Part shown: positions 29,840 to 46,929 of the stretch, piece after piece | Layout of the letters: every line of letters starts with the position of its first letter | Position numbering within the stretch: the first letter of the stretch is position 1 | IMG/VR virus record: IMGVR_UViG_3300045988_131485 | From: a virus | Strand: one strand, 5' to 3' | Length of the DNA: 64,000 bases | Program-made: the position numbers and the translations under genes | Notes under the pieces: model-generated | Told to the model about the DNA's origin: nothing | What the model saw: only the letters and a program-made list of their open reading frames with translations | The model's database searches: none

Positions 29840-29875
29840 GGTTAGCAACAAAGAAAATCAATCTGTAAATAATAG
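29840..29875 (+). promoter_or_regulatory. class-A promoter-like motif (P1)
   Basis: GGTTAGCAACAAAGAAAATCAATCTGTAAATAATAG. 14 nt separate TTAGCA from TCTGTAA. Upstream of the ATG at 29934. Confidence 0.6.
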
Positions 29876-29933
29876 CGGGGCCGGTAAAACGGAACGCCGG
29901 CCCCCAATAAAAAACGTAAAGGGGAACACAAAA

Positions 29934-30293
29934 ATGACTATCAATAACGCGGTTCTGAAAAATTGCTTGAAACTCTCCAGCAAGATCACGGTTTACGTGC
30001 CCGCCACAAACGGCATTGACCAGGCGGCGGACAATACGGAACAGGTCAAGAAAACGGCGGCGCTCCTCTCCGAGCTTTTCGGCGGCGCGACTTCCACCCC
30101 GGCGCTGGGCTACTGGATGTCTCCGGCGGCTGGCCTGGTGGCAGAGGCTACAACGGTGGTTTTCGCCTACGCTGCGGATGCGGCGCTCCAGGAGCACGTC
30201 GGGCGCGTGGTGGAGCTGTGCGAGGAGCTGAAGCGGGAGATGGGACAAGAGGCCATCGCCCTGGAAATCAACGGTGAGATGTATTTCATCTAA
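29934..30293 (+). CDS. hypothetical protein
   Basis: ORF-track 29814..30293. The ATG at 29934 follows AAAGGGGAA and lies downstream of P1, which the longer ORF would overlap. Confidence 0.6.
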   Translation: MTINNAVLKNCLKLSSKITVYVPATNGIDQAADNTEQVKKTAALLSELFGGATSTPALGYWMSPAAGLVAEATTVVFAYAADAALQEHVGRVVELCEELKREMGQEAIALEINGEMYFI

Positions 30294-30347
30294 CAGCAGG
30301 ACGGCGGGCGAGGGCTACGGCTCCCGTCCGCTTTTCTGTAAAAGAGA

Positions 30348-30377
30348 ACGGCGGGAAAACTCCCGCCGTTTTTTTTA
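30348..30377 (+). terminator. rho-independent terminator
   Basis: ACGGCGGGA-AAAC-TCCCGCCGT followed by T8. A second GC-rich hairpin lies just upstream (30298-30337). Confidence 0.8.
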
Positions 30378-30384
30378 TGGACTT

Positions 30385-30420
30385 GGTTAGCAATCGCTAT
30401 TTTCTTTCTGTAATATAAGT
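30385..30420 (+). promoter_or_regulatory. class-A promoter-like motif (P2), antisense to minus-strand gene
   Basis: GGTTAGCAATCGCTATTTTCTTTCTGTAATATAAGT. It points into the 3' end of minus-strand CDS 30429..30971, and there is no plus-strand ORF before 31198. Confidence 0.55.
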
Positions 30421-30428
30421 AGAACGGG

Positions 30429-30971
30429 TTAAGCTGCGAAGTAAGCCTTCAGCATTTTGGCAGCTATCAACTTTTGTTCTTCGGTCAATTCTGCGGTGAC
30501 TGATTCAAGTGTCAGCGGATGCGCCCATTCCTGGAAGCTGTTAAGGTAGAGTGCGGCGTCTTTCTCACTGTTCACATTTTCAAGCTCTACAAGGAACGGT
30601 TTTACAAGTTGGATAATTTCGGATTTGTCCGCCTCGATCAGAAAAACTCTTTCCTTTTCGATGATGGAACGGCGCTTTAATTCGCCGGACTTCCTGCGCT
30701 CCATTTTTTCTACCTGATAACGGAAAACGAATTGCAAAACGGTTTCCTGGCGCTTGACGGCGGCGCGGATGTAGGATTTCATAAATTTTACGGTTCCATC
30801 TTCATGACCTGCAACAGCCTTTGTCATTTCCTTATATGGGAAACGGAATATCTGAAAATACAGACAATTCTTTTCCGCATGGGAATAACGGAGGTTGTGC
30901 GCGTCGGTAATGAGGGGAAGAAATTCCTGCGTCGGTGTTCCTTTCTGGAATGTAGCAATTTTGATCTCCAT
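30429..30971 (-). CDS. hypothetical protein (opposite-strand island gene)
   Basis: ORF-track 30429..31049. The ATG at 30971 follows AAGGAGAA (MEIKIATFQKG...). Confidence 0.6.
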   Translation of the reverse strand: MEIKIATFQKGTPTQEFLPLITDAHNLRYSHAEKNCLYFQIFRFPYKEMTKAVAGHEDGTVKFMKSYIRAAVKRQETVLQFVFRYQVEKMERRKSGELKRRSIIEKERVFLIEADKSEIIQLVKPFLVELENVNSEKDAALYLNSFQEWAHPLTLESVTAELTEEQKLIAAKMLKAYFAA

Positions 30972-31150
30972 AACGTTTTCTCCTTGTTTTTGGCCTGCGT
31001 CCGTGGTAGAATAGGCAAAGGCGGGTTGATCCCGTGCTTGCCGGTTCATCCTTGGCCGTCAGGCGGGGCGGATGCTGGTATCATCCGCCCTCTTTCTAAT
31101 TCATATTATACACGGTATACCGTGAAAAATCAACTGAAAATTTGTTTTTT

Positions 31151-31186
31151 GGTTAGCATTCACAGAATTTTTTCTGTAATAGTAAT
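31151..31186 (+). promoter_or_regulatory. class-A promoter-like motif (P3)
   Basis: GGTTAGCATTCACAGAATTTTTTCTGTAATAGTAAT, upstream of the ATG at 31198. Confidence 0.6.
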
Positions 31187-31197
31187 GGGGTGATAAT

Positions 31198-31422
31198 ATG
31201 GCGGTTTCTGATGCTCATAGGCGTGGAAATGCAAAGTGGGATAAAGAAAATATGCGGGTTGTCTCCTGCAAAATTAGATCAGAGGAACACGCTGCGTTCA
31301 AGGCGTATGCAGAGGCCAGGGGTAAGACTATTTCCAGTCTGCTACTGGAATATGTGCGCAGTTGCATTGCGGAGGATATGGAACAGAAGAAAAATATAGA
31401 ACAGAATTGCCCGCCGGACTAA
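31198..31422 (+). CDS. ribbon-helix-helix (CopG/Arc-like) protein
   Basis: 74 aa. NMRVVSCKIRSEEHAAFKAYAEARGKTISSLLLEYV fits a beta-strand plus two helices RHH pattern. Confidence 0.55.
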   Translation: MAVSDAHRRGNAKWDKENMRVVSCKIRSEEHAAFKAYAEARGKTISSLLLEYVRSCIAEDMEQKKNIEQNCPPD

Positions 31423-31441
31423 CCGGCGGGCGTTTTTTTTA
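31409..31441. terminator. bidirectional terminator
   Basis: GCCCGCCGG-ACTAA-CCGGCGGGC followed by T8, between convergent CDS 31198..31422 and 31439..31675. Confidence 0.75.
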
Positions 31442-31675
31442 TAATTGTCTATTTTTTCGTTCTTCGTATTTTTTGAGCGTATCATCTAATCTTTCAAGTT
31501 CTTCTTCCAAAGTACCAACGGTACGGGATGGATATGGAGATTCACCCGGTTTATAGTAGTGGACGGCCTGAGCTGCATATTTGTCCGCTTTTCGTTTCTG
31601 GACTGACTCACGGAGAAGGCTACTAACTAAATATGTGATTGCAAAAGGGGTTGGAACACGGCGAAACAGTCTCAT
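31439..31675 (-). CDS. hypothetical protein (opposite-strand)
   Basis: 78-aa ORF with a hydrophobic N-terminus and a charged C-terminus. Coding status is uncertain. Confidence 0.4.
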   Translation of the reverse strand: MRLFRRVPTPFAITYLVSSLLRESVQKRKADKYAAQAVHYYKPGESPYPSRTVGTLEEELERLDDTLKKYEERKNRQL

Positions 31676-31691
31676 AAAAATCTCTCCTATT

Positions 31692-31727
31692 GGTTAGCAA
31701 AACTTGTTTTCTTTCTGTAATTATATC
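31692..31727 (+). promoter_or_regulatory. class-A promoter-like motif (P4)
   Basis: GGTTAGCAAAACTTGTTTTCTTTCTGTAATTATATC, upstream of the ATG at 31770. Confidence 0.6.
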
Positions 31728-31769
31728 AAGAGTTAATAAATTTTCAATCATTGGAACGGAGGAAAGCAA

Positions 31770-32021
31770 ATGGATATTCAGGAAATCAACCAGAGTTCGC
31801 CGGAGTTCCTGTATCAGATGCTGGGACGGCTGGAAGCGGATTGTCTGTATTATCTGGGGAACGGTGGGCGCTTTGCGGGCCATCTCTGGGTGGGCAACGA
31901 GCGCAAGCAGATCAAACTGATGCGGATGATTTACCGCCGCTTGTGTGAGATTGGAGCCGCGCCGGAATGGATGAGCGAGCAGCAGATCAACGACTTTGCG
32001 GAGCAGATGCTGGTGGTATAA
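31770..32021 (+). CDS. hypothetical protein (LPD/polyvalent-protein-associated-domain-like)
   Basis: 83 aa. LGRLEADCLYYLGNGGR..LW resembles small domains seen in conjugative-element polyvalent proteins. This is from memory and is weak. Confidence 0.55.
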   Translation: MDIQEINQSSPEFLYQMLGRLEADCLYYLGNGGRFAGHLWVGNERKQIKLMRMIYRRLCEIGAAPEWMSEQQINDFAEQMLVV

Positions 32022-32034
32022 AAATTTTCAGGGC

Positions 32035-32069
32035 GGTTAGCAAATCGCCGTTTCTGTCTGTAATTATAT
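32035..32069 (+). promoter_or_regulatory. class-A promoter-like motif (P5)
   Basis: GGTTAGCAAATCGCCGTTTCTGTCTGTAATTATAT. Confidence 0.6.
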
Positions 32070-32079
32070 CAGAAAACGA

Positions 32080-32430
32080 ATGGAGGTTCTAACCGTGACA
32101 AAATATTATATTTCTTTGGAGGCTGACGGAAATTTTCATATTATCGAGTACGATACTGGCGAGGGCGTAAGAGTGCTGCGGGACGCTGGCGGACGGGAAA
32201 CGAGTGTTGTAATTTATCACAATAGCTTGATTATTTCCGCTTTGTATGACACTGTGGAGGCTGCTATAAAGCACCTGGGCGGAAGTCGCCGGGAAACGAT
32301 CTTGCCTGATGGTCGAGTGGTAATCCCGGAGTCCGTGAATTATCCTGAGTTAGTCATCCGCAACATATTTGTGCCGTTTAGCGCTGTGCGTGCTGAAGTC
32401 TGGCCTGGGGAGCCTGGATGGGGAAAATAA
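32080..32430 (+). CDS. hypothetical protein
   Basis: 116-aa ORF. The true start may be the GTG at 32095, because the ATG at 32080 lies inside the GGAGG RBS. Confidence 0.55.
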   Translation: MEVLTVTKYYISLEADGNFHIIEYDTGEGVRVLRDAGGRETSVVIYHNSLIISALYDTVEAAIKHLGGSRRETILPDGRVVIPESVNYPELVIRNIFVPFSAVRAEVWPGEPGWGK

Positions 32431-32441
32431 TTTCCCGATTA

Positions 32442-32477
32442 GGTTAGCAAATACGAATTTCATTCTGTAATTATAGT
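32442..32477 (+). promoter_or_regulatory. class-A promoter-like motif (P6)
   Basis: GGTTAGCAAATACGAATTTCATTCTGTAATTATAGT, the consensus copy. Confidence 0.65.
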
Positions 32478-32519
32478 AGATACCTGGAAATCAAATGAAA
32501 ATAACGGAGGCTGACAAAC

Positions 32520-33011
32520 ATGAAGTGGTTCAATAATCCTGAGACGCTGGAAGACCTGAAAAAGCAATACAAGAAGCTGGCTTTTCAAAATCATCCTGAC
32601 CGGGGCGGCAAAACTTCGGATATGCAGGAGATTAACGCTGAGTATGAAGCGCTGTTCTCCCGGCTGAAGGATACCCACAAAAACGCAGAGGGCGAGTTTT
32701 ACACGGCACGGACGGCCACGACCGAGACGGCCACGGAGTTCATGGACATCATCGAAAAGCTGATTCACATGGAGGGCATCGAGATCGAGGTTTGCGGCTC
32801 CTGGGTGTGGGTCACTGGCGACACCAGGCCGCACAAGGAAGAGCTGAAAGCCCTGTCTTTCCGGTGGAGCAGCAACAAATCCGCGTGGTATTTCCACCGC
32901 GACGGATACAAGAAGCGGAGCAAGAAGTCTCTGACACTGGACGAGATCAGGGGCTACTACGGCAGCGAAAAGATTGAAAAAGAGGGCGGCGGGAAAATCG
33001 CGGTTGCATAA
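32520..33011 (+). CDS. J-domain (DnaJ-like) protein
   Basis: N-terminal LEDLKKQYKKLAFQNHPDRGG contains the HPD tripeptide of J domains. Confidence 0.85.
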   Translation: MKWFNNPETLEDLKKQYKKLAFQNHPDRGGKTSDMQEINAEYEALFSRLKDTHKNAEGEFYTARTATTETATEFMDIIEKLIHMEGIEIEVCGSWVWVTGDTRPHKEELKALSFRWSSNKSAWYFHRDGYKKRSKKSLTLDEIRGYYGSEKIEKEGGGKIAVA

Positions 33012-33017
33012 CAGATT

Positions 33018-33055
33018 GGCGGGCTGGGAAAACCTGGCCCGCCTTTTCTTTTTCG
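33018..33055 (+). terminator. rho-independent terminator
   Basis: GGCGGGCTGGG-AAAA-CCTGGCCCGCC followed by TTTTCTTTTTC. Confidence 0.75.
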
Positions 33056-33071
33056 GAAAATTTTACTGAAT

Positions 33072-33107
33072 GGTTAGCAAATGATCGGAACAGTCTGTAA
33101 TTATAGT
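33072..33107 (+). promoter_or_regulatory. class-A promoter-like motif (P7)
   Basis: GGTTAGCAAATGATCGGAACAGTCTGTAATTATAGT. Confidence 0.65.
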
Positions 33108-33125
33108 GGGAGGTGGTCAAGTCCA

Positions 33126-33266
33126 TTGAAGTGCTACTACCTGGGCGATAAGAAAATCACCGAAGCGGAGGCCAAAGAGATCGAGGCCAAAAACCGCGAG
33201 ATTTTAAGAGATGGAACGGTTGAAGAGCTTTTGCAAATTCGGCACGTTATTTGTCGGGAGGAATGA
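33126..33266 (+). CDS. small hypothetical protein
   Basis: ORF-track 33081..33266 starts inside P7. The TTG at 33126 follows GGGAGGTGG by 9 nt. Confidence 0.45.
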   Translation: MKCYYLGDKKITEAEAKEIEAKNREILRDGTVEELLQIRHVICREE

Positions 33267-33269
33267 AAG

Positions 33270-33671
33270 ATGGAACACACATTTAAGATCGAAAAGGAAT
33301 TGAAGATCACAACGGAGAACATCGTGGACTGTGTACTGTCCTGCGAGGCCGGTGGCTTTGACTACTGGGGCGAGTTGTGCAGCGATGAGAAGGACTACGA
33401 GGCGGCGCGGCAGCGGCTGGCAGAGAGAGAAAAGGCCGATATGAAGCCCTGCTATGAGGACGTGCTGGCCGAGATTCTGGAGAGCGGCGGCAAGCTGACC
33501 GTGTACGACCGTGAGGATGACAAAGACCACGAGCTGACGCTGGAAAAACTTCTGAACGGCTGGAAAAAGTACGTGGAAGATCATAACGCGGATGACTTCG
33601 ACGAGTACGACGGAATTTCTGCTGACTGCATTATGCAGTATGCGATTTTCGGCGACGTGATTTACGGCTGA
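33270..33671 (+). CDS. hypothetical acidic protein
   Basis: 133-aa ORF, 3 nt after the previous stop. Confidence 0.6.
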   Translation: MEHTFKIEKELKITTENIVDCVLSCEAGGFDYWGELCSDEKDYEAARQRLAEREKADMKPCYEDVLAEILESGGKLTVYDREDDKDHELTLEKLLNGWKKYVEDHNADDFDEYDGISADCIMQYAIFGDVIYG

Positions 33672-33676
33672 TAAAA

Positions 33677-33712
33677 ACGGGCTGGCCTGGTGGCTGGCCC
33701 GTTATTTTTTTT
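33677..33712 (+). terminator. rho-independent terminator
   Basis: ACGGGCTGGCC..GGCTGGCCCGT followed by a T-run. Confidence 0.75.
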
Positions 33713-33720
33713 GCCGGTCA

Positions 33721-33756
33721 GATTAGCAAGATTGAAAAACCGTCTGTAAATATAGT
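33721..33756 (+). promoter_or_regulatory. class-A promoter-like motif (P8)
   Basis: GATTAGCAAGATTGAAAAACCGTCTGTAAATATAGT. Confidence 0.6.
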
Positions 33757-33773
33757 GTAAGGGGCAATGCTCC

Positions 33774-33798
33774 AAGCAGCAAAGTAAATTAACGGAGG
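33774..33798 (+). promoter_or_regulatory. class-B-like leader AAGCAGCAAAGTAAATTAACGGAGG
   Basis: Fused to the SD of CDS 33807..34010, downstream of P8. Confidence 0.45.
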
Positions 33799-33806
33799 TT
33801 GAAAGA

Positions 33807-34010
33807 ATGAAACGCTATGCAGTTTGTATCACTGATGATGACGGCGGCACGGGCGAAGCGGTTTTTACCGTGAAGAATAAAACAGAGGCACGGGCCAGAG
33901 GTCGCCTTTATATCCGTCAGTGGCAACTCCCCAACGGGAAGATCGAGTATATCCGGGAGTTAGCAGAGGGTGAAGAGGCCGTTAAGTTTGGTCGCGCCGC
34001 TGGTTATTGA
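33807..34010 (+). CDS. hypothetical protein
   Basis: 67-aa ORF with a GGAGG RBS. Confidence 0.55.
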   Translation: MKRYAVCITDDDGGTGEAVFTVKNKTEARARGRLYIRQWQLPNGKIEYIRELAEGEEAVKFGRAAGY

Positions 34011-34025
34011 TAGGAGGAGATCATC

Positions 34026-34457
34026 ATGTATGATGTCGAAAAGTTGGTTTCCATCGTCTGCGATTATCTGGACGCTGAAGCGGACTATATGAAATACAGT
34101 CTGGACGCAAGAAAAGAGCTGGGGCTGGCTCCCGACTCTACCCTGTGGATTCCTTCCCTGAATGGCTCCAAGGCATACCGTCTGGGTGAGCTGTTCGAAA
34201 AGTCAGGAGCGACCGGCAGCATTTTGGCCGACATCTGCGCCATGCTGGACATCAATCAGGAATTGTTGGTGGCCGCTGTCAAATCCATGCAACGCAAGGA
34301 ACGCCATAACGGACGCTGGGACAATCCGAATTATACCTGCTGGATGAACGAGGACGACAAAAAGCGGCTGGCCCGGTTCCTTTCCAATGAGCGCGGAGAG
34401 TCCGGCGTTTATCCCTGGTTCAGCAGTACCGGACGGAAAAAGCCATGGTGTGAATAA
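34026..34457 (+). CDS. hypothetical protein
   Basis: 143-aa ORF with an AGGAGGAG RBS. Confidence 0.6.
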   Translation: MYDVEKLVSIVCDYLDAEADYMKYSLDARKELGLAPDSTLWIPSLNGSKAYRLGELFEKSGATGSILADICAMLDINQELLVAAVKSMQRKERHNGRWDNPNYTCWMNEDDKKRLARFLSNERGESGVYPWFSSTGRKKPWCE

Positions 34458-34473
34458 GGTATAGCTAAACCGA

Positions 34474-34510
34474 AGAGGAAGGGCAAAAAGTCCTTCCTCT
34501 TTTTTTATTT
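34474..34510 (+). terminator. rho-independent terminator
   Basis: AGAGGAAGG..CCTTCCTCT followed by T7. Confidence 0.75.
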
Positions 34511-34513
34511 CAT

Positions 34514-34549
34514 GGTTAGCAAATTTGCCTTTCTTTCTGTAATTAAAGT
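34514..34549 (+). promoter_or_regulatory. class-A promoter-like motif (P9)
   Basis: GGTTAGCAAATTTGCCTTTCTTTCTGTAATTAAAGT. Confidence 0.6.
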
Positions 34550-34578
34550 AGAAAGTCAAAATAATGGAGGAATGACAC

Positions 34579-34905
34579 ATGACAACGAAAACTGATTTTC
34601 ACGCCATCCAGGAGCTGAGGGAGAAATACGCCCCGAAAGTGCGGGGTATCGTCTCCGGCGAGGAGGCCAAGACCATCTACGAAGTGCTGGAAATTGATAA
34701 GCGCAACAACATCGAGCTTCAGAATATCCGGGATATGGTGGTCATGATTTACGGCCAGTGGTTTGATAAATCACGTGACCAGTATCTGGAGGATAAGAAG
34801 AAGGGCGCGCAGGCGGTTGATAAGTCTGCGGAGTATCTGGACGCAATGAGCGCCATCATCTGCGTCATCGACTATGAGAAATTCAAGAGAGGACTGGGAG
34901 TATAA
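34579..34905 (+). CDS. hypothetical protein
   Basis: 108-aa ORF with a GGAGGAA RBS. Confidence 0.6.
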   Translation: MTTKTDFHAIQELREKYAPKVRGIVSGEEAKTIYEVLEIDKRNNIELQNIRDMVVMIYGQWFDKSRDQYLEDKKKGAQAVDKSAEYLDAMSAIICVIDYEKFKRGLGV

Positions 34906-34920
34906 AAATTTGGGGAGGGC

Positions 34921-34956
34921 GGTTAGCAAATCGTTCTCCCCTTCTGTAATTATACC
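34921..34956 (+). promoter_or_regulatory. class-A promoter-like motif (P10)
   Basis: GGTTAGCAAATCGTTCTCCCCTTCTGTAATTATACC. Confidence 0.6.
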
Positions 34957-34969
34957 AGGAGGTGCAGTG

Positions 34970-35143
34970 ATGGAAAACAAATACGTTTCCTTCGAGGTTT
35001 ACCGTCCCGTAAAGTCTCCCACGGAGAAAGGGGAATACATGGGAAAGACACCAAACCTGGAGCAGGCACGGCGGGCCGCTGATGCTGTTGGCGGTGCCTT
35101 GTACGGGATAACATCTGACGGACGCAAAGTCCTGTTGCTGTAA
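34970..35143 (+). CDS. small hypothetical protein
   Basis: ORF-track 34874..35143 overlaps P10. The ATG at 34970 follows AGGAGG (MENKYVSFEVY...). Confidence 0.5.
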   Translation: MENKYVSFEVYRPVKSPTEKGEYMGKTPNLEQARRAADAVGGALYGITSDGRKVLLL

Positions 35144-35170
35144 TTGAGATCAAGTATTAAGGAGAAGATT

Positions 35171-35344
35171 ATGAAATTTTTAATCTGTATGCCCACCGGC
35201 AAGGATGGTATCCAAGATGATGCGGTTATCCGTGACGCCCTGTTGACGGCAGTAAACCGTATTACGCTGATGGATGAGAAGAGCGGCGAGTTTGAGGCTG
35301 GCGACGGCAACCAGAATATGGTTACGTTTGAAGTGTCCGAATGA
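35171..35344 (+). CDS. small hypothetical protein
   Basis: The ATG at 35171 follows AAGGAGAAG (MKFLICMPTGKDG...). Confidence 0.5.
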   Translation: MKFLICMPTGKDGIQDDAVIRDALLTAVNRITLMDEKSGEFEAGDGNQNMVTFEVSE

Positions 35345-35362
35345 ATAAAGGAGGAAGACAAA

Positions 35363-35794: not shown

Positions 35795-35797
35795 AAA

Positions 35798-35831: not shown

Positions 35832-35838
35832 TTCTTTT

Positions 35839-35874
35839 GGTTAGCAACAAAGTAAATCATTCTGTAAATATAAT
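35839..35874 (+). promoter_or_regulatory. class-A promoter-like motif (P11) with embedded class-B core
   Basis: GGTTAGCAACAAAGTAAATCATTCTGTAAATATAAT. Confidence 0.6.
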
Positions 35875-36692: not shown

Positions 36693-36728
36693 GGTTAGCA
36701 ATTTTTCAAAACGGTCTGTAAATATAGT
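36693..36728 (+). promoter_or_regulatory. class-A promoter-like motif (P12)
   Basis: GGTTAGCAATTTTTCAAAACGGTCTGTAAATATAGT. Confidence 0.65.
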
Positions 36729-37452: not shown

Positions 37453-37488
37453 GGTTAGCAAAACTGGGAGGCTATCTGTAATTATAGT
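37453..37488 (+). promoter_or_regulatory. class-A promoter-like motif (P13)
   Basis: GGTTAGCAAAACTGGGAGGCTATCTGTAATTATAGT. The upstream half sits in the loop of hairpin AGCCTCCC..GGGAGGCT. Confidence 0.65.
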
Positions 37489-38106: not shown

Positions 38107-38142
38107 GGTTAGCAAAACTCGCCCTGGCTCTGTAATTATAGT
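38107..38142 (+). promoter_or_regulatory. class-A promoter-like motif (P14)
   Basis: GGTTAGCAAAACTCGCCCTGGCTCTGTAATTATAGT. Confidence 0.65.
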
Positions 38143-39322: not shown

Positions 39323-39358
39323 GGTTAGCAAAACGCAGTTCTTTTCTGTAAGTATAGT
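39323..39358 (+). promoter_or_regulatory. class-A promoter-like motif (P15)
   Basis: GGTTAGCAAAACGCAGTTCTTTTCTGTAAGTATAGT. Confidence 0.65.
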
Positions 39359-39405: not shown

Positions 39406-40350
39406 ATGTCTGCGAATGTTGAGAGTATGTTCTATGCTGGACGCGAGAAACCCTGGCATGGCCTGGGTACTCAGGTTGAGGAAGCGCCGACCAGTGCCGA
39501 TGCACTTCGGCTGGCTGGTCTGGACTGGACTGTGCAGCGCAAGCCCATTCAGGTTTGCGGCGGGCGCAAGGTGGATAACTTCTTCGCTAATGTGCGGAGC
39601 AGCGACGGTGCGGTGCTGGGCGTGGTCAGTGACCGGTATCAGGTGGTGCAGAATGCGGAGGCATTTGCGTTCACCGACGCTCTGATTGGCGGAGAGGGTC
39701 AGGTTCACTATGAGACGGCGGGAAGCCTTATGGGTGGTCGGAAGATTTGGCTGCTGGCAAAACTGCCCGATACGGAGATCGTCGGCGATAAGACCGAGCC
39801 GTATCTGTGCTTCTCCAACACCCACGACGGCAGCGGCGCTATCCGCGTGTGTATGACGCCTATCCGGGTGGTTTGCAACAACACTCTGAACATCGCACTG
39901 AATGGCGCAAAGCGTGCGTGGTCTGTCCGGCATACCGGCGACATTCAGGCCAAGCTCCAGGAGGCGCGGATGTGTCTGGACATGGCGAATAAGTACATGG
40001 ACAAGCTGGCTGTGTACGCCGACCAGATGGCGAACAAGACCGTCACCGATGAGCAGATCGCCAAAATTCTGGACGAGATGTTCCCGGCCACGGAGGATAT
40101 GAGCGAGCGTGAAAAGCGGAACGCGACGAAAGCCCGTGAAGAGTACATGATCTGCTACTTCGCGCCGGACATTCTCAAGTTCAAGGGGACTGCCTGGGGC
40201 GCACTGAACGCAATGAGCGACATGGTTGGACATACCGCTCCCCGCCGCATGACCTCCAACTACCAGGAGAACAACTGGGGCCGGATCATGGACGGCCATG
40301 CCATGATGGACAAGATGGCCTCTCTGCTGGCAGGCGTTGGCGCACGATAA
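39406..40350 (+). CDS. DUF932-family protein
   Basis: 314 aa. MFYAGREKPWHGLG...LDWTV...RVCMTPIRVVCNNTL matches my recollection of the DUF932 (phage/plasmid-like TIGR03299) family. Confidence 0.7.
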   Translation: MSANVESMFYAGREKPWHGLGTQVEEAPTSADALRLAGLDWTVQRKPIQVCGGRKVDNFFANVRSSDGAVLGVVSDRYQVVQNAEAFAFTDALIGGEGQVHYETAGSLMGGRKIWLLAKLPDTEIVGDKTEPYLCFSNTHDGSGAIRVCMTPIRVVCNNTLNIALNGAKRAWSVRHTGDIQAKLQEARMCLDMANKYMDKLAVYADQMANKTVTDEQIAKILDEMFPATEDMSEREKRNATKAREEYMICYFAPDILKFKGTAWGALNAMSDMVGHTAPRRMTSNYQENNWGRIMDGHAMMDKMASLLAGVGAR

Positions 40351-40396: not shown

Positions 40397-40432
40397 GGTT
40401 AGCAAAATTACAGAACGATTTGTAAATACAGT
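40397..40432 (+). promoter_or_regulatory. class-A promoter-like motif (P16)
   Basis: GGTTAGCAAAATTACAGAACGATTTGTAAATACAGT (variant with TTTGTAA and TACAGT). Confidence 0.55.
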
Positions 40433-40743: not shown

Positions 40744-40746
40744 GGT

Positions 40747-41046
40747 GTGTTTATGTTACGGCCTGGACGTTACAAATCCGAGCATGATGGCAATGTCTTT
40801 CAAGCCTATCGGTATGTCATGGAAGTCAAGGAAACCACGAAGTCCTATATCTTCAAGCTGCTGGAAGTTGAGAACCGATACGCCGACGATCATATCGAAA
40901 TCATGTTTGGCGGCAAGAAGCGGATTGTTCTTCCCAAGGATAAGCCTTGCCGTCATGCAATGCGAGTGTGGAGTGACCACGACTTTACGATTTACCCCTT
41001 CCAAGCCGGCGTCCCGTTCTATTTCGAGAAGGAGGATGTGGCATGA
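40747..41046 (+). CDS. hypothetical protein
   Basis: 99-aa ORF. I prefer it over the overlapping 40745..41068 frame on composition and on its 4-nt coupling to the next gene. Confidence 0.55.
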   Translation: MFMLRPGRYKSEHDGNVFQAYRYVMEVKETTKSYIFKLLEVENRYADDHIEIMFGGKKRIVLPKDKPCRHAMRVWSDHDFTIYPFQAGVPFYFEKEDVA

Positions 41047-41396
41047 AAATCCCCAAGTATGTTTATGAGCTGGTGGAGCTGGGGCGGTTACGTCCCGCTC
41101 CTTTGGACGAGCAGGCCAATTCGAGTATTGCAGGCCAGGGTGAATATGGATATATGTTCCGAGTCTATCGGAAGAGTAACAGTCAATCCGGCGGAGTGTT
41201 TGTTGCCGAGGTGGAACGTATAACAGCCTGGGCACGACGGGAGTACGCGGAATCCAACATTCATACATACCGCTGGTACACTGATAAAGAGCACCGTAAA
41301 CCTTACTACAAACGGGATTATGCACTGGTGACGATCACTGATCCAGTTGCACAGCAGCTGGAAAAGTTGATTGCTTTGGTTAGCAAGAAACACTAA
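41043..41396 (+). CDS. hypothetical protein
   Basis: 117-aa ORF. Confidence 0.55.
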   Translation: MKIPKYVYELVELGRLRPAPLDEQANSSIAGQGEYGYMFRVYRKSNSQSGGVFVAEVERITAWARREYAESNIHTYRWYTDKEHRKPYYKRDYALVTITDPVAQQLEKLIALVSKKH

Positions 41397-41413
41397 CGGT
41401 CTGTAAATATAGT
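41378..41413 (+). promoter_or_regulatory. class-A promoter-like motif (P17), overlapping a CDS 3' end
   Basis: GGTTAGCAAGAAACACTAACGGTCTGTAAATATAGT. It includes the stop codon of CDS 41043..41396. Confidence 0.6.
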
Positions 41414-41419
41414 GAGGAG

Positions 41420-41782
41420 GTGGTCAATGTGTTTCGAGTTATCATCGCCGGAGGGCGAGACTTTGATGACTACCAGCTTTTGAAAGCGACCATGGATAAA
41501 CTGCTTTGCAATATTACGGATGAGATCATCGTTGTTTGTGGACAGGCTAAGGGCGCTGATACGCTGGGTGAACAGTATGCCATGGAAAAGGGATACACCA
41601 TTGACTACTACCCCGCCCAGTGGAAGCTATACGGCAAGCGAGCTGGATACCTACGCAATGAGCAGATGGCACAGAACGCCGACGCTCTGGCCGCATTCTG
41701 GAACGGTGAAAGTCGTGGCACCAAGCACATGATCGAGCTTGCCAAGAGATACGGTTTGAAAGTGCGGGTCAAGCGATATTAA
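41420..41782 (+). CDS. DUF2493 / SLOG-family (YspA-like) protein
   Basis: VIIAGGRDFDDY...VVCGQAKGADTLGEQYA...YPAQW..YGKRAGYLRNEQM matches the DUF2493 SLOG family. The start could also be the GTG at 41429. Confidence 0.7.
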   Translation: MVNVFRVIIAGGRDFDDYQLLKATMDKLLCNITDEIIVVCGQAKGADTLGEQYAMEKGYTIDYYPAQWKLYGKRAGYLRNEQMAQNADALAAFWNGESRGTKHMIELAKRYGLKVRVKRY

Positions 41783-41794
41783 GGAGACAGAGAT

Positions 41795-42025
41795 ATGTTA
41801 GTCATTAAGAAAATATGCGATTACACAATTCCGATATTTGGGAACAAGAGAGTTCTCCCCTATGCAAAGCTACTTGTTTCTGATGGTATTACAGAAAAGT
41901 TAAGGCCGATCATAGATGATGGCGGAAGACAGTACATCACGTTCAACCGAAAGAGATACTACATCAAGAATGCTGGGAGCCTCTATTCTCCCCACTATGT
42001 TTTTGCCGATGAACGGAACCCCTGA
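41795..42025 (+). CDS. hypothetical protein
   Basis: 76-aa ORF with an AAGGAGA RBS. Confidence 0.5.
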   Translation: MLVIKKICDYTIPIFGNKRVLPYAKLLVSDGITEKLRPIIDDGGRQYITFNRKRYYIKNAGSLYSPHYVFADERNP

Positions 42026-42040
42026 AAGGAGCACCTGGGA

Positions 42041-42241
42041 ATGACAAGAATCGGAAAAGAAACAATCATTCGTGCTCTGGAACAGCACGCGAAATCCCAA
42101 TCTGATATCGAACAGAATGCAAGGGAGCGCGGGGAACCAGACTTTGCTATTAAGGCAGGCCGTGAGAAGAATGTGGCTGTCGGTCTGGTGAGTGTGTTCC
42201 AAGGTATTTTGGATAGCCCGAGTGGAACCGTTAAGATTTAA
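42041..42241 (+). CDS. hypothetical protein
   Basis: 66-aa ORF with an AAAGGAG RBS. Confidence 0.5.
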   Translation: MTRIGKETIIRALEQHAKSQSDIEQNARERGEPDFAIKAGREKNVAVGLVSVFQGILDSPSGTVKI

Positions 42242-42259
42242 GTATAAGGAGGTAGCAGT

Positions 42260-42829
42260 GTGAAGATTACGGTTGCTGTCATAACCCCACAGGATTACGA
42301 AAAATTCAATGCTGTCGGAATGAACGCCGAGGCGTGTCTGGCAGACCGTGTAAAGCTGATATGCCAAGATGACGCCGGACACGTGGCAGAGTCCTTCATG
42401 AAACAGGATGAGTTCGACCGGCTGGGGCTGGCCTATATCGAACAGCACGCAAAGCTGGAACACTCTGAGGTCTGCGACGAGTGGTTTATGAAGTGTTCTC
42501 AAAATTCCTGGTACAACGATCTGGAACGCAATCCTGAGAAAGTCATCAAAGTTATGTTCGTCGGCATCGAAGACGGAACAGGCCGAGAGGTTTACCGAGG
42601 TGTTGAGACACAGCGTTATTATCTGCGTGAGGTACACGCCCACCAGCTTTTTGCCAAGTGGTATTTGTGCGGAGAGCGCCGGGTGCCGGAGGATGGTAGA
42701 GAGCCAAGACCTAACCTGGTTTTCCAACTGGGAGATCAGACGGAGAAGGTTGTGTATGACGACTGGAACGGCGTTGCTGCCTACAAGGATCAGTTCAACA
42801 AAAACTTCCGAGAAAAGGTTAGCAAATAG
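42260..42829 (+). CDS. hypothetical protein
   Basis: 189-aa ORF with a GTG start after AAGGAGG. Confidence 0.55.
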   Translation: MKITVAVITPQDYEKFNAVGMNAEACLADRVKLICQDDAGHVAESFMKQDEFDRLGLAYIEQHAKLEHSEVCDEWFMKCSQNSWYNDLERNPEKVIKVMFVGIEDGTGREVYRGVETQRYYLREVHAHQLFAKWYLCGERRVPEDGREPRPNLVFQLGDQTEKVVYDDWNGVAAYKDQFNKNFREKVSK

Positions 42830-42852
42830 TAGTTTCATCCTGAAAATGTAGT
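42817..42852 (+). promoter_or_regulatory. degenerate class-A motif (P18)
   Basis: GGTTAGCAAATAGTAGTTTCATCCTGAAAATGTAGT. The upstream half is perfect and the downstream half is diverged. Confidence 0.4.
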
Positions 42853-42905
42853 GGTCTGGGAGGCTCCACTATAAAAAGCCTCACCCCATAAAGTGAGGTG
42901 GCGAT

Positions 42906-43040
42906 ATGGAAATCCTCTTTGGGCTTGTCATCGTGGCCGTGAAGCTGATTTTGGAACACGTGGCCGTGAGGCACGCCAACAAATACTCCGATACCGTTGT
43001 TCGTAGATACAACAAAAATGAAAGTGAGGAAGAAAGATGA
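42906..43040 (+). CDS. small hydrophobic peptide (44 aa)
   Basis: MEILFGLVIVAVKLILEHVAVRHANKYSDTVVRRYNKNESEEER. The ATG follows GTGAGGTGG, and the stop overlaps the next start (ATGA). It is below the ORF-track size cut-off. Confidence 0.45.
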   Translation: MEILFGLVIVAVKLILEHVAVRHANKYSDTVVRRYNKNESEEER

Positions 43041-44008
43041 GTTTGATGGAGAAGTTCTCCGCCGTCGAGATCAAGGCGGACAACAGAATTTCCGAGGATG
43101 ACAAGGCGTTTTGTCTCCGCCAGCAGGAAGCCTTTGATAAGGCTGGGCCGGCGCTCCAGAAGGTTGCTGAGGCGATGTCCGCAGCCAAGGCAGAGCAGGC
43201 TGGAATCCTGACCGCAGACGAAGACTTTATCGACCGGTATGTGGGCGATGATTGCGACGTAGATGGTGTTTACGACACCATGAAGAAGAGGAACCGCACA
43301 TTCATTTCAGCTGTCGTCAATTATTTCAGCCGCAAGTACAGTGTTGAGCTGGACAAGCACGAGATTGAGGAGCATCTTATTCCCACCGGCCCGAAGGAGC
43401 CGAATTTGCCCTGGGGTGGATACAGAAGCATGAGCGAGGACGAGATTGCCTCTTATCAGCAGGAGCTGGACGCCTATAAGGTCGAAAAGGATAAGTTTGA
43501 ACAGTCCTTGCGTACTCTCCCTCTCCGGTATGAACAGGTTGTGGATGAGATCTTTGTACAGCTGGGCGGATTCTCATTCCAGGAGCGAGCCATGAATGAG
43601 TTTCTCCGGTTGTGTTGGGACGCATCTCATCACAGAAATTGGAGTTCCGATCAGTATGTGGAAGAGTTCGAGATCAAGAACGATGTGCTCCGCCTGACCG
43701 GATCGTGGGTATATTGTGATGAAAACAAATGGATGAGCAGTCCTGTCCCTGAGTATAAGCCCAGTGAGTCCCTGAAAACCATTCTGAATGCGCTGGCACA
43801 CTATGAGACTGGGAAGTTCAAGGACGGCGCAAATTGGTTCCCGGAGCTTTTCAAGTACGATACCAAGGAAAACCAGTTTGAGATCGCGTACATGAGCAAG
43901 GTCAAAAATATCAAGCTGTTCAAAAATGGCCGTGTGGATATCAAGTTCCGCAGTGCCGCTTTTGTCCAGGAGTTTGTGGGACAGTATTTGAGGAGGAACC
44001 CGGCATGA
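43037..44008 (+). CDS. hypothetical protein
   Basis: 323-aa ORF. Confidence 0.6.
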   Translation: MSLMEKFSAVEIKADNRISEDDKAFCLRQQEAFDKAGPALQKVAEAMSAAKAEQAGILTADEDFIDRYVGDDCDVDGVYDTMKKRNRTFISAVVNYFSRKYSVELDKHEIEEHLIPTGPKEPNLPWGGYRSMSEDEIASYQQELDAYKVEKDKFEQSLRTLPLRYEQVVDEIFVQLGGFSFQERAMNEFLRLCWDASHHRNWSSDQYVEEFEIKNDVLRLTGSWVYCDENKWMSSPVPEYKPSESLKTILNALAHYETGKFKDGANWFPELFKYDTKENQFEIAYMSKVKNIKLFKNGRVDIKFRSAAFVQEFVGQYLRRNPA

Positions 44009-44562
44009 AACTGACAAAGAAGCAGCTCTCCGCCCTACAACGGATTGTAGGGCGGGAGCAGACCCGATATGACGAAACCCAGTCGGAGGCTCTGGCTGGT
44101 GTTCATCCCAGCGAGAAGCATTTTGCCATAACAGATGGAACTATGGTGGTGCTGTTTGCGGAACAGCCCGAGGGAATCCCCGTAGGTGATCGGACGGAAA
44201 CGTATGATAAATACGTTCAGGACTATCTCAAGGACGCGAACGCTTCGTTGGTTGTTTCGCCGCCCACTGTGGATGATTGCAAAAAGATCATCCGTGAGTG
44301 GAGAGGTATGAAGCCTCTTTTCCCGAAGATTACCGTTACCACCGAGGATGAGAACGGCGCTCCTATGACGAGCTATTTCGACGCTTATCGCTATCTGGAT
44401 ATCTTGGAGGCTGTCGGGCCGTATCGTAACATCTATATGGGGAGCAGCGACACAATACGGACGCCGTACCCGTGCCTACTGGTGTATAAGCGGTGTGGAC
44501 GTGACGAGCGAGATAGTGTCAACTGGGACGAGCCGGCATTTCTGCTGCCGTGCCGTCCTTGA
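44005..44562 (+). CDS. hypothetical protein
   Basis: 185-aa ORF with a 4-nt overlap with the upstream gene. Confidence 0.6.
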   Translation: MKLTKKQLSALQRIVGREQTRYDETQSEALAGVHPSEKHFAITDGTMVVLFAEQPEGIPVGDRTETYDKYVQDYLKDANASLVVSPPTVDDCKKIIREWRGMKPLFPKITVTTEDENGAPMTSYFDAYRYLDILEAVGPYRNIYMGSSDTIRTPYPCLLVYKRCGRDERDSVNWDEPAFLLPCRP

Positions 44563-44577
44563 CAGGAGGAGGATGTT

Positions 44578-44802
44578 ATGAGTTTTGAAGACGCGCTTGA
44601 AAAGCTCTTGTCTCTGGGCATCTATAAATGTCTCGCAGAACGAGTTTTGAGAACTGTTTGCAAAACAGGAAGAAGCATGGACGTTATGGTAGGGAACGAG
44701 ATTTATTGTATCAATGCGGTATATTCGGGTGAGAGACGCGAGGATACGAAATTCTGGGGACTTGCTACAAGCAACTATACTTTCGATGTGGGGAGAGTTT
44801 GA
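44578..44802 (+). CDS. hypothetical protein
   Basis: 74-aa ORF with an AGGAGGAGGA RBS. Confidence 0.5.
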   Translation: MSFEDALEKLLSLGIYKCLAERVLRTVCKTGRSMDVMVGNEIYCINAVYSGERREDTKFWGLATSNYTFDVGRV

Positions 44803-44803
44803 C

Positions 44804-45538
44804 ATGACCAGACGGAAAGTGATTTTCTGGAACGATCTGAATGACAGCTATATCGTTTCCGAGGAATATAACGGCGACAAGGCTGAAATGGAACGCTTCG
44901 GCCTTGGAGCCTGCGACCATACTTGGCCTGAGTTTATGGAGGCTATGAGCAGCGTGAGCAACATGGCGGACTTCCTCAAGGTGATCTCCTACATCACTGC
45001 CAGTTACCATGCTACTGTCAATGGCGTGCCTCTCCCGGAGCAGGCCAATAACCTGCCTGGGTCACGGCTGAATGTCGCCCATAGCCATAAGGAGCTGTAT
45101 AACTTAGTTGGCGACATGGATGAGGTGTGGGAGGTCAAGCGGAATATCTCTGGCGCTCATCTGCTGGACGTGTCCACCATCGCTCCCAAGCCCAAGCAGG
45201 TCTGGGACGGAAAGGAAGTCATAGATGAGGATGACTTCGACTACGCCACCGCAAAGCCCGGTGACTTTGTGACTCAGGCCGTAGTGGACAATGCAATGGA
45301 TTGTCTGCCACCTGTTTGTATGAGTGCCCGGTGCTCTCAGATGGGCGAGCCGTACTCCAGCAAGCTGGATGAAAAGACCGGCGAATGGCGGAGCATCTAT
45401 GCCACCTTCCGTAAGGTCGGTGGAGAGTGGCCGAATGGTATTTGGGAATACTGCGGTCACTGCTTCCGGGGTGAAACAGTGGAACGGGGCAAAGAAATGG
45501 CTCATATCCAAAATTTTCTCGCTACTATTGAGAGATGA
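44804..45538 (+). CDS. hypothetical protein
   Basis: ORF-track 44714..45538. The ATG at 44804 follows GGGGAGAG and avoids overlap with the previous gene. Confidence 0.55.
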   Translation: MTRRKVIFWNDLNDSYIVSEEYNGDKAEMERFGLGACDHTWPEFMEAMSSVSNMADFLKVISYITASYHATVNGVPLPEQANNLPGSRLNVAHSHKELYNLVGDMDEVWEVKRNISGAHLLDVSTIAPKPKQVWDGKEVIDEDDFDYATAKPGDFVTQAVVDNAMDCLPPVCMSARCSQMGEPYSSKLDEKTGEWRSIYATFRKVGGEWPNGIWEYCGHCFRGETVERGKEMAHIQNFLATIER

Positions 45539-45573
45539 GGTTAGCATCCGTCGTCTCCCGCCTTAATTACAGA
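45539..45573 (+). promoter_or_regulatory. degenerate class-A motif (P19) embedded in a hairpin
   Basis: GGTTAGCATCCGTCGTCTCCCGCCTTAATTACAGA. The 9-bp hairpin CGTCTCCCG..CGGGAGACG followed by AAAATTTT overlaps it. Confidence 0.4.
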
Positions 45574-45603
45574 CGGGAGACGAAAATTTTGGAGGTGTTA
45601 ATT

Positions 45604-46422
45604 TTGAAACGGTTTAAGGTGCAAACCGCAGACGGCCACACTTTGCTGCTCTACTATCCCACCCAAGAGAAAGCCCAGGAGAGCTACCCGGACGCCACAA
45701 TTACGGAACATACCGACCAATCTCATGTAGAGTACATTGAGCGGATGCTTGCTGCCGCCAACGATTGTAAAACGGCGGAACGCAAAGGTTCTACCGTTTA
45801 TCTTCTCAGGTTTAATACGTCGGCGGGCATCTGTTTGGCGATGCTTTCCCGAGATATCAGCGACGGAATGTGGTACGACTTGTGCCAGTATCAATTCTGG
45901 AAATCCGGGGCACTGGTCGCTCCAATCACTAAGACCCTATCTAATCCGGCTGCGTTTTGTAAACAGTTTCTTTTCCCGAAGTCGGAATACCAAGTGCTTT
46001 GCGCTGGCGGCAAGCTCCCAAAGCCGGAAGAAATCAGAGGCGTTAGGAAATTCGCTTCTGTCCCTTTTGAGGGAATATGTCAGTGCCAGCTATTCCTAAA
46101 AGGTGACGACTTATATATCAAGCATAACGACTACTTTTCAGAAACGCACTCCACCGGAAAGATTGATCCGCGCACCAACATGGAGGAACGGGTGCTATAT
46201 ATTTGCCACGCATGGCTGAGGATTACCAATTTTGTACCATTGGTAAAACTCCTGAACAACGTGGAAATTTCTGCCACAGTTTGGCCTATGCTTCGGGACT
46301 TCCACCAATGGCCGGCAGGTGAATATAATATGGAGTGGAACCGCTTTTTGGAGGGTGTAGCGAGGGCTACAAGAAACTATCTGAGCAAAAAGGAGGTAGG
46401 TTATGGAACAGAGAACTTGTAA
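45604..46422 (+). CDS. hypothetical protein
   Basis: ORF-track 45535..46422 starts inside P19. The TTG at 45604 follows GGAGG by 8 nt. Confidence 0.55.
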   Translation: MKRFKVQTADGHTLLLYYPTQEKAQESYPDATITEHTDQSHVEYIERMLAAANDCKTAERKGSTVYLLRFNTSAGICLAMLSRDISDGMWYDLCQYQFWKSGALVAPITKTLSNPAAFCKQFLFPKSEYQVLCAGGKLPKPEEIRGVRKFASVPFEGICQCQLFLKGDDLYIKHNDYFSETHSTGKIDPRTNMEERVLYICHAWLRITNFVPLVKLLNNVEISATVWPMLRDFHQWPAGEYNMEWNRFLEGVARATRNYLSKKEVGYGTENL

Positions 46423-46891
46423 TATCATCATGTGCTGCAAGGGGCATTGCAAACTCGCGGGCGAAAATGCTCCGCCGTTGGAGGCCATCGCTGCATACAT
46501 GAGCGCTGAGTGCGCTTGTCCGAAGGAAGACTACACCGGAAAGCTGATGGAAATGATTTTGAGAGAGGCGCTGTTTGATTATATGGCGGGCGCGGACAAG
46601 CCCGGATATGAGCTGCGCCAGCTTCTTCAGCAATATGCCACACGTGACCCCAATCTTTCGGAGCGTATCTACACCTTATTCCAGTTAGCCCAAGTGAGAG
46701 ATGATAACAGGTATGTCAATGGGTTTACGGATAAATTGCTCCGGCAAAGTGAGATTGATCTTGGAGCCTCCAGAGACAGTATGCCCTGTCTTTTGGATGA
46801 AAAGAAGATCGTCAATTATCCTTGTTCTCGCGCCTGCCCGCTTTTTGGAGACTGCGTTACAAAGTGGTATCAGGTAAGAAAAAGAGCTTGA
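46403..46891 (+). CDS. hypothetical Cys-rich protein
   Basis: 162-aa ORF. Confidence 0.55.
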   Translation: MEQRTCNIIMCCKGHCKLAGENAPPLEAIAAYMSAECACPKEDYTGKLMEMILREALFDYMAGADKPGYELRQLLQQYATRDPNLSERIYTLFQLAQVRDDNRYVNGFTDKLLRQSEIDLGASRDSMPCLLDEKKIVNYPCSRACPLFGDCVTKWYQVRKRA

Positions 46892-46893
46892 CC

Positions 46894-46929
46894 GGTTAGC
46901 AATCCCCCTTTTCTTTCTGTAATAGAAGT
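46894..46929 (+). promoter_or_regulatory. class-A promoter-like motif (P20)
   Basis: GGTTAGCAATCCCCCTTTTCTTTCTGTAATAGAAGT, upstream of the methylase-helicase gene. Confidence 0.6.

Follow-up and report, generated by a model that had tools for sequence, protein, structure and literature searches.

A 36-nt, two-block motif, GGTTAGCAA-N13-TCTGTAAWTATAGT, recurs ahead of genes in a 64,000-nt stretch of DNA from the virus record IMGVR_UViG_3300045988_131485 of IMG/VR (the window, referring throughout to this whole stretch), where it has the organization of a promoter class probably read by a phage-encoded sigma factor. The putative factor is a divergent, ECF-like member of the sigma-70 family of 265 amino acids, whose gene (29024-29821, plus strand) ends just upstream of the first motif copy. 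An earlier note, made from the letters of the window alone, had described the motif and proposed two candidate readers, this sigma-like protein and a YonO-like RNA polymerase (18884-21706); the evidence presented here favours the former and makes the polymerase an unlikely reader. The motif and its strandedness and geometry, the presence of two promoter classes, the sigma homology and the synteny can all be read off the sequence and are described in turn below. Taken together, the homology, the geometry and the conserved synteny make it reasonably probable that the complete model, in which the 265-aa protein reads the motif with the host core polymerase, is correct.

According to this model, the host sigma-A holoenzyme would transcribe 29024-29821, the first gene of the rightward block, from an extended -10 promoter, probably under the control of a repressor acting through a second repeated element. 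The phage sigma would then bind the host core RNA polymerase and direct it to about 20 delayed-early promoters, located between 29.8 and 47 kb with one more at 52.8 kb, each of them heading a short and often terminator-bounded accessory cassette. Finally, the YonO-like polymerase would handle the late/structural genes, resulting in a three-tier programme. We infer from sequence features that the sigma reads this particular motif, that it uses the host core and that it acts at this time.

A repeated motif on the plus strand of the rightward block

The window was searched with the full 36-nt pattern, allowing up to three mismatches and using 100 shuffles as background, and with the core pattern TTAGCA-N14-TCTGTAA. 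The full pattern gave 17 matches, every one on the plus strand, and none in the 100 shuffles of the 64-kb window. The core, likewise found only on the plus strand, gave 17 exact matches, two with one mismatch (at 40399 and 52826) and one with two mismatches (at 42819), with about 0.95 expected, and GGTTAGCAA was the most frequent 9-mer of the whole window (18 occurrences). Consistently with the earlier note, all 18 starts that it had listed as good copies were real, the 14 nt separating TTAGCA from TCTGTAA were invariant, and the motif was confined to the plus strand. Its four additional, degenerate copies fared differently: those at 42817 and 52824 are credible, and those at 45539 and 60782, which keep only GGTTAGCA(A), have no -10 block and were missed by the core search, are not supported. 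The total of about 22 copies is thereby revised to 19-20.

All copies lie between 29.8 and 52.9 kb, and none is near the terminase and portal genes (7532-11023, minus strand). Ten of the 19 copies directly follow an intrinsic terminator, as had been remarked before, and the gap from the end of the motif to the start codon is 7-74 nt, wider than the 15-60 nt originally given. The description of the motif as standing once per gene cassette, upstream of a start codon, does not extend to the copy at 30385, which has no plus-strand gene downstream.

Motif anatomy and predicted transcription start

Motif copies were pooled from the window and its relatives, and the 293 with distinct spacers were kept. 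In these, an A/T tract (WWWTTTT) is found 7-13 nt upstream of the motif, A is favoured at motif position 10 and W-W-T-C/T at positions 17-20, and positions 30-36 read W-T-A-t-A-R-T; none of these positions had served to select the copies. A pyrimidine stands at position 36 in 92-93% of the copies and a purine at position 37 in 94%, followed by G at 38 and then by purines, and this Y36/R37 pattern persists in the 139 copies without a Shine-Dalgarno-like sequence nearby. The Shine-Dalgarno sequence itself (AGGAGG or GGAGG, then a start codon) begins at position 37 in 54 of the 293 copies and at position 38 in 18; only two calls, both likely spurious, start before 37, and almost none start between 39 and 47.

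Since a ribosome-binding site must be transcribed, this sharp boundary, together with the Y-1/R+1 context, points to a transcription start at or just before position 37. A start there would put TGTAAW at -12 to -7 and TTAGCA at -34 to -29, with a 16-nt spacer, would make the trailing TATAGT a discriminator (-6 to -1) rather than a -10 element, and would bring the upstream A/T tract to about -50 to -44, the position of an UP element. The motif, bipartite, with fixed spacing, on the coding strand and before genes, thus has the geometry predicted for a promoter of a sigma-70-family holoenzyme, and we consider it very likely that it is a promoter class.

The reading TTAGCA-16-TGTAAT proposed in the earlier note was therefore right as to geometry; its sigma-A-like character was not borne out, given the G at the normally invariant -11 A. 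Other readings of the two blocks were discarded. The trailing TATAGT, put forward before as a second TATAGT after the first -10 element, cannot serve as a sigma-A -10, because Shine-Dalgarno sequences begin immediately 3' of it, at position 37 or 38, in 72 of the 293 copies. TGnAAWTAT as an extended -10 would need a 19-nt spacer and a start falling inside the Shine-Dalgarno sequence, and the idea that the two conserved blocks form an inverted repeat was dropped on inspection. An Rfam search found nothing within the motif block.

Host-type promoters form a separate class

Host-type promoters were sought with TTGACA-N14-TGnTAnnnT, one mismatch being allowed, a search for which 0.95 matches are expected in the window. 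Six canonical sites were found, at 16734(-), 27868(-), 28878(+), 51177(+), 51243(-) and 51813(+), none of the six falling within the 29.8-47 kb motif block, which agrees with the earlier observation that the ordinary promoters of the window look different. One of them is the extended -10 promoter of the sigma gene (28878-28906, plus strand; TTGACG-N14-TGaTAAGAT, a 17-nt spacer), so that 29024-29821 does stand behind a normal sigma-A promoter, as previously stated, and TTGACA-17/18-TGnTAnAAT promoters also precede the sigma gene in the relatives L114, L116, L131, L239 and L240. The motif does not follow this pattern: it has TGTAAW at -12 to -7 with G at -11, lacks TGn and matches the -35 consensus at four of six positions, and a generic sigma-70 consensus scan misses its copies. 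Housekeeping sigmas need A at -11, and the G in its place argues against sigma-A as the reader of the motif.

It is nonetheless conceivable, though we think it improbable, that the motif copies are simply strong early promoters of the host sigma-A, with flanks arising from optimisation or duplication without any dedicated factor. TTAGCA-16-TGTAAT agrees with the consensus at nine of 12 positions, a host multisubunit polymerase would account for both the UP-like A/T tract and the Y-1/R+1 context, and the early promoters of phages such as T4 and SPO1 often have a consensus reaching beyond the two hexamers. What counts against this explanation is the G replacing the near-invariant -11 A, without a TGn, in a genome whose clear host-type promoters, like those of five relatives, all have TTGACA, a 17-18-nt spacer and TGn; moreover, the invariant G1, G2, A9, T23 and C24 are not sigma-A contacts, and the two promoter classes do not intermix, with the sigma gene at the head of the block. 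A dedicated factor, which the earlier note had suggested, remains the best explanation for a motif class distinct from the host-type promoters.

The protein encoded at 29024-29821 belongs to the sigma-70 family

The 265-aa protein comprises an N-terminal Phage_Gp111-like helical domain (residues 1-90), a sigma-2-like domain (about residues 105-173) and a sigma-4 helix-turn-helix (about residues 200-262). Searched as a single sequence, it gave only the N-terminal Phage_Gp111 match and a weak C-terminal helix-turn-helix in Pfam, and weak sigma-factor matches in PHROGs; NCBIfam TIGR02937 (sigma70-ECF) aligned residues 109-260 with positions 27-162 of its 165 (E = 3e-5, a match below the curated cutoff). 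When 1.84 billion representative proteins were searched with a profile, 480 relatives were retrieved, many of them of about 190 aa and without the N-terminal domain. Among 77 aligned family members, Sigma70_r4_2 was matched in 32, Sigma70_ECF in 14 and Sigma70_r4 in 7, and one member of the broad family alignment matched DUF1492. Compared with the PDB, the family profile found sigma-F (1e-8), sigma-B and CnrH as its best matches, and hhalign aligned residues 105-261 with residues 41-183 of E. coli RpoE at 84% probability, the region-2 part pairing residues 105-172 with RpoE 41-95 (with a hand-entered RpoE sequence in both cases).

Structure prediction was consistent with these results. An AlphaFold2 model built from the 77-sequence alignment reached a pLDDT of 91, compared with 68 for a poorer model from a shallower alignment; the top 26 Foldseek matches in the PDB were sigma factors (E 6.5e-3 or weaker), and the named viral matches were mostly phage sigma factors (best E = 3.4e-4). 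By sequence relationships, the 265-aa protein is thus a member of the sigma-70 family. Its region 4 is secure, a region 4.2 helix-turn-helix being recovered by Sigma70_r4_2 in 32 of the 77 members, by the PDB profiles and by the hhalign pairing with RpoE region 4; its region 2 is probable.

Motif and sigma gene are linked in related phages

The exact motif, with its 16 specified bases, was scanned against 596 Gb of sequence, in which roughly 280 chance hits are expected by arithmetic. Many IMG/VR contigs contained it in clusters, with as many as 13 copies in a single fetched stretch, and the matches listed included clusters from Hominicoprocola fusiformis, from other Oscillospiraceae and from uncultured Clostridia; elsewhere the matches listed were single and scattered. 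A control pattern with an equal number of specified bases gave 56 single matches and no cluster. In the set of 50,697 phage records, neither a tblastn search with the 265-aa protein nor a near-identity search with 28.8-47 kb returned a match.

The position of the motif relative to the sigma gene is conserved. About 26 of the 35 loci with a sigma homologue (47-100% sigma identity) have a motif copy 9-44 nt past the sigma stop codon, followed by a hairpin and then by a conserved gene for a 119-aa protein. At lower sigma identity the arrangement loosens: in L240 (42%) the motif copy lies beyond one intervening small gene, and in L244 (39%) it lies further downstream. A similar hairpin-forming stretch after the sigma gene can be followed as far as 47% identity (L239), and at 42% (L240) the 119-aa gene is still present.

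The recognition helix of sigma-4, ..SNVAVHKRI.., is invariant or nearly so in close homologues and common in the wider family, and homologues with the ..AVHKRI.. helix keep GGTTAGCAA (L239, L240 and L244). One homologue with a changed helix (P0171, SQQAVQKR) has GGTTGTAAA-N13-CGTGTTA downstream, a single promoter on a 1.1-kb contig; searches for relatives of this protein, and for the variant motif in IMG/VR, found nothing clustered. What helix and motif show is consistent co-conservation, rather than covariation.

Separately, CCCGCCCCGGAGGTCACGAGGGCAG precedes several genes (1-30, 363-390 and 605-630) on the small RepL-bearing contig L242, which encodes a distant sigma homologue, and is present once in L240, at about 11708-11733.

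Evidence against the sigma model and other possible readers

Several observations weigh against the 265-aa protein as reader of the motif with the host core. The sigma homology is weak in region 2: the TIGR02937 match scored 23.7 bits against a curated cutoff of 42.9, Pfam Sigma70_r2 was matched in only one of the 77 family members, and the Foldseek matches had E-values of 3e-4 to 1e-2 with low TM-scores. The model leaves unexplained both the role of the extra 90-residue N-terminal helical domain and the conserved TATAGT discriminator. Covariation of the sigma-4 helix with the -35 element was sought in the contigs of divergent homologues and not found, and a conserved host sigma, the explanation considered above, would account equally well for a motif that stays the same in diverged phages. 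Finally, every motif-bearing relative examined also has a YonO-like polymerase, so that presence/absence profiling cannot separate the two candidate readers.

A different protein might read the motif, either an alternative sigma of the host or a phage activator such as the 119-aa product of the first cassette, and this we judge to be quite unlikely. The gene for the 119-aa protein (phrog_3543) is invariably found after the sigma gene, and the extra TATAGT block could be the site of a separate protein. Among the matches listed, however, clusters of the motif were confined to contigs of phage or prophage-like character; the 119-aa protein matches no DNA-binding family and, with its own gene placed behind a motif promoter, does not qualify as the first activator.

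The other candidate named in the earlier note is the 940-aa YonO-like two-barrel RNA polymerase (18884-21706), whose gene we place, as a correction, on the minus strand, within the structural/late block. It carries an ADFDSD metal motif at residue 603 and matches phrog_8308, and in relatives its gene is flanked by YonK and YonV_C domain genes, neighbours that tie it to the yonO region of SPbeta. In SPbeta, YonO acts at a single promoter, that of one late (structural) operon, lacks most of the conserved polymerase domains, and has a promoter sequence and factor requirements that are not established (PMC5467207). The missing domains presumably include those to which a sigma would dock. Scans of the window found no motif copy in the minus-strand late block, nor in the intergenic region that follows the polymerase gene; on the basis of this absence and of the late role of YonO in SPbeta, the polymerase is assigned to late transcription, and it probably serves the late/structural genes. 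The intergenic region in question (18739-18883, minus strand), directly downstream of the polymerase gene, contains two hairpins and no GGTTAGCAA motif, and corresponds by position to the start of the YonO late operon of SPbeta, upstream of yonK and a non-coding RNA.

There is, in our estimation, only a slim chance that the motif is the promoter of this polymerase, acting alone or with a phage factor. The constant presence of the polymerase beside the motif and the scant knowledge of YonO promoters would leave room for it. The motif, however, does not resemble the T7-like promoter of a single-subunit polymerase, a contiguous conserved block across the start site: it consists of two blocks with 13 unconserved nt between them, and it has about 20 copies in the accessory block; its -35/-10 layout, unconserved spacer and UP-like tract are the signature of a sigma holoenzyme, the polymerase gene is on the other strand, and both the single late-operon promoter of YonO and its reduced domain content (PMC5467207) speak against this role. 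As a genome with the polymerase and without the sigma, MT835469.1 was considered for comparison (polymerase 47% identical, neither sigma nor motif); it shows no obvious repeated promoter word and, with a G+C content of 30%, is too distant to be decisive.

We give equally little credence to a combination of the two candidates, in which the sigma-like protein would be the specificity subunit of the YonO-like polymerase instead of working with the host core, or to its milder form, in which the host core would be used and the Gp111-like domain would read TATAGT, making a three-element promoter. If the sigma did serve the YonO-like polymerase, this would answer how YonO-type enzymes find their promoters.

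A second, operator-like element accompanies the sigma gene

Beside the motif, a second element, TAGCAACAAAGWAAATCA, is repeated in the window, with 12 copies on both strands and 0.04 expected. The copies are located at 16709-16726(-), 16763-16780(+), 24807-24824(-), 27906-27923(-), 28860-28877(+) and 28987-29004(+), and start at 29843(+), 33774(+), 35842(+), 51841(+), 52827(+) and 56321(+). They bracket the host-type promoters at 16734(-) and 51813(+), the pair around 16734-16762 being inverted. At the sigma gene, one version of the element (TAGCAACAAAGTTAATGA, 28860-28877, plus strand) abuts the -35 of the promoter and another (TAGCAACAAAGTAAATCA, 28987-29004, plus strand) lies in the 5'UTR, just before the Shine-Dalgarno sequence; the element also takes up the spacer in three of the motif promoters (29840, 35839 and 52824).

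Other lineages have their own version at the same three sites around the sigma gene, such as TAGTGACGAACAAAAYTA in L116 and AGCAACACATAAAACTA in L239, so that the element changes in concert between lineages while its positions are kept, the behaviour of a lineage-specific factor site. That every copy in a genome should change together would be expected of an operator and its repressor, and the element is a candidate lysogeny-repressor operator comparable to the SPBRE of SPbeta; it may also act as a 5'UTR RNA.

Divergent from the sigma gene lies a gene for a 256-aa protein of the tyrosine-recombinase family (27050-27820, minus strand), with a host-type promoter and, 9 nt upstream of that promoter, the copy of the second element at 27906 (minus strand). 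The protein keeps the catalytic R, H-x-x-R, H and Y and is without a long N-terminal arm-binding domain. In SPbeta, a repeated element at about ten promoters is bound by a repressor with a tyrosine-recombinase fold (PMC10516654), and with such a gene adjoining the sigma gene one could take the GGTTAGCAA motif as a repressor operator array of the SPBRE/MrpR kind rather than a promoter core, a notion that hardly merits belief given that the motif is one-stranded, keeps a fixed distance to the Shine-Dalgarno sequence and is invariant across lineages, that it is TAGCAACAAAGWAAATCA which shows operator behaviour (both strands, bracketing of host-type promoters, concerted change), and that the recombinase, unlike MrpR, keeps its catalytic residues.

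Two further observations concern the region that separates the sigma promoter from the recombinase-family gene. The stretch 28300-28720 is very G+C-rich, with imperfect repeats of the GCTGG/GGCGG type. A 219-aa open reading frame (ORF) overlapping it, at 27871-28530 (minus strand), was considered as the repressor and rejected, as a low-complexity, P/S/T/A-rich sequence with no family matches; it is probably not a gene.

Promoter copies, cassettes and genome layout

The window is organized in two directions. From 1 to 26 kb it runs leftward, with the portal, the terminase (9218-11023), a 22-tRNA array with a transfer-messenger RNA (tmRNA), an exonuclease and the polymerase, and from 29 kb it runs rightward. 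The 22 tRNA genes (12102-16669, minus strand) and the tmRNA (15748-16176, minus strand) lie downstream of the host-type promoter at 16734-16762. Three further tRNA matches of about 120 nt, found by Rfam and missed by ARAGORN (54120-54240, 54380-54496 and 54765-54888, minus strand), may represent tRNA-like genes with introns or other unusual features.

All motif copies described below are on the plus strand. Copy 1 (29840-29875) begins 18 nt past the sigma stop codon, has the operator-like element in its spacer and precedes the conserved 119-aa gene (29934-30293), from which it is separated by a stable 5'UTR hairpin (29876-29905; -19.7 kcal/mol, z = -2.25). The 119-aa protein might act as a partner of the sigma or regulate it. 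Copy 2 (30385-30420) is directed antisense across a minus-strand ORF (30429-31049), towards a plus-strand terminator (31065-31091), with a bidirectional terminator (30347-30370) upstream; the 206-aa product of this ORF has no family matches, and the transcript of copy 2 may be an antisense RNA silencing a gene expressed in lysogeny. In the relative L116, minus-strand genes are also found downstream of motif copies, one of them with a Mrr-type nuclease domain.

Several cassettes begin with recognizable genes: copy 3 (31151-31186) precedes a ParD/DUF6290-like gene (31198-31422), copy 4 (31692-31727) a gene with an LPD11 domain (31770-32021), copy 6 (32442-32477), a perfect match, a DnaJ-like gene (32520-33011), copy 15 (39323-39358) a DUF932 gene (39406-40350), and copy 17 (41378-41413), also perfect, a YAcAr/SLOG gene (41429-41782). 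Copies 5 (32035-32070), 8 (33721-33756) and 9 (34514-34549) lie among these, as do copies 7 (33072-33107), 13 (37453-37488) and 14 (38107-38142), all three of them perfect matches. The Shine-Dalgarno sequence begins at motif position 37 in copy 10 (34921-34956; AGGAGG), in copy 11 (35839-35874), whose spacer holds the operator-like element, and in copy 12 (36693-36728), a perfect match. Copy 16 (40397-40432) has the variant TTTGTAA.

Towards the end of the block, copy 18 (42817-42852; CCTGAAA) is degenerate and plausible, standing ahead of an operon of about 4 kb (42906-46891), and copy 19 (46894-46929) precedes a DarB-like methylase-helicase gene (ATG at 47004, to 50053). The outlying copy 20 (52824-52859; GGATAGCAA...TCTGTAA), again with the operator-like element in its spacer, would drive 52867-53172. 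The cassettes consist of small, mostly unannotated accessory genes, likely serving host takeover or anti-defence.

Significance and comparison with known systems

If the sigma model is correct, the phage would provide an orthogonal sigma/promoter pair, with a compact 265-aa factor, a clear-cut consensus of some 55 bp and hundreds of natural variants, and its roughly 20 promoter-delimited small-gene cassettes would represent a co-regulated delayed-early set. It would also give a first outline of expression timing in widespread large temperate phages of human-gut Oscillospiraceae, and the three-tier programme would allow a direct test of how a phage sigma and a minimal two-barrel polymerase share the work of transcription.

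Among known regulators, the Ltr late activators of Gram-positive phages (RinA, ArpU, LtrA/Sigma70_r4 and LtrB/DUF1492; PMC3753634) are, like the 265-aa protein, small phage proteins with a sigma region-4-like helix-turn-helix that switch on phage transcription. They act at one promoter upstream of terS, in contrast to about 20 accessory-block promoters here, none of which is near the terminase gene, and the 265-aa protein has a sigma-2-like domain in addition.

With SPbeta, this phage shares a YonO-like polymerase with YonK/YonV_C neighbours and a repeated operator-like element at host-type promoters, beside a gene of the tyrosine-recombinase family (PMC10516654). It differs in that the GGTTAGCAA motif, unlike SPBRE, appears to be a promoter core and not an operator, in the retention of the recombinase catalytic residues, in its host, here of the Oscillospiraceae with about 50% G+C, and in the sigma itself, for which no homologue was found in the 50,697 phage records, a set that we assume to include SPbeta.

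The two-domain sigma-2/sigma-4 layout is that of the ECF (group 4) sigmas, such as E. coli RpoE. RpoE-type promoters read GGAACTT-N16-TCTGA, and the motif likewise has a G-rich start of its -35 and a TCTG-type -10. Unlike RpoE, the 265-aa protein has a 90-residue N-terminal extension, scores below the family cutoffs, is phage-borne and would have a regulon of phage cassettes; no anti-sigma partner was identified for it.

Phage sigmas with promoters of their own are represented by gp28 of the Bacillus phage SPO1, which serves the middle promoters, and by gp36 of phiEco32. As in these systems, a sigma made from a host-type early promoter would redirect the host core to clustered phage promoters that depart from the host consensus. 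The phage-encoded sigma with its own promoters is a long-established principle, which makes the present model useful but unsurprising to the specialist. In contrast to SPO1 and phiEco32, the consensus here is GGTTAGCAA-N13-TCTGTAA with a conserved discriminator, the sigma has an extra N-terminal Phage_Gp111-like domain, and the phage also encodes a YonO-type polymerase; what is new is thus the sigma subfamily, its consensus, the phage group in which it is found and its coexistence with a polymerase of the YonO type.

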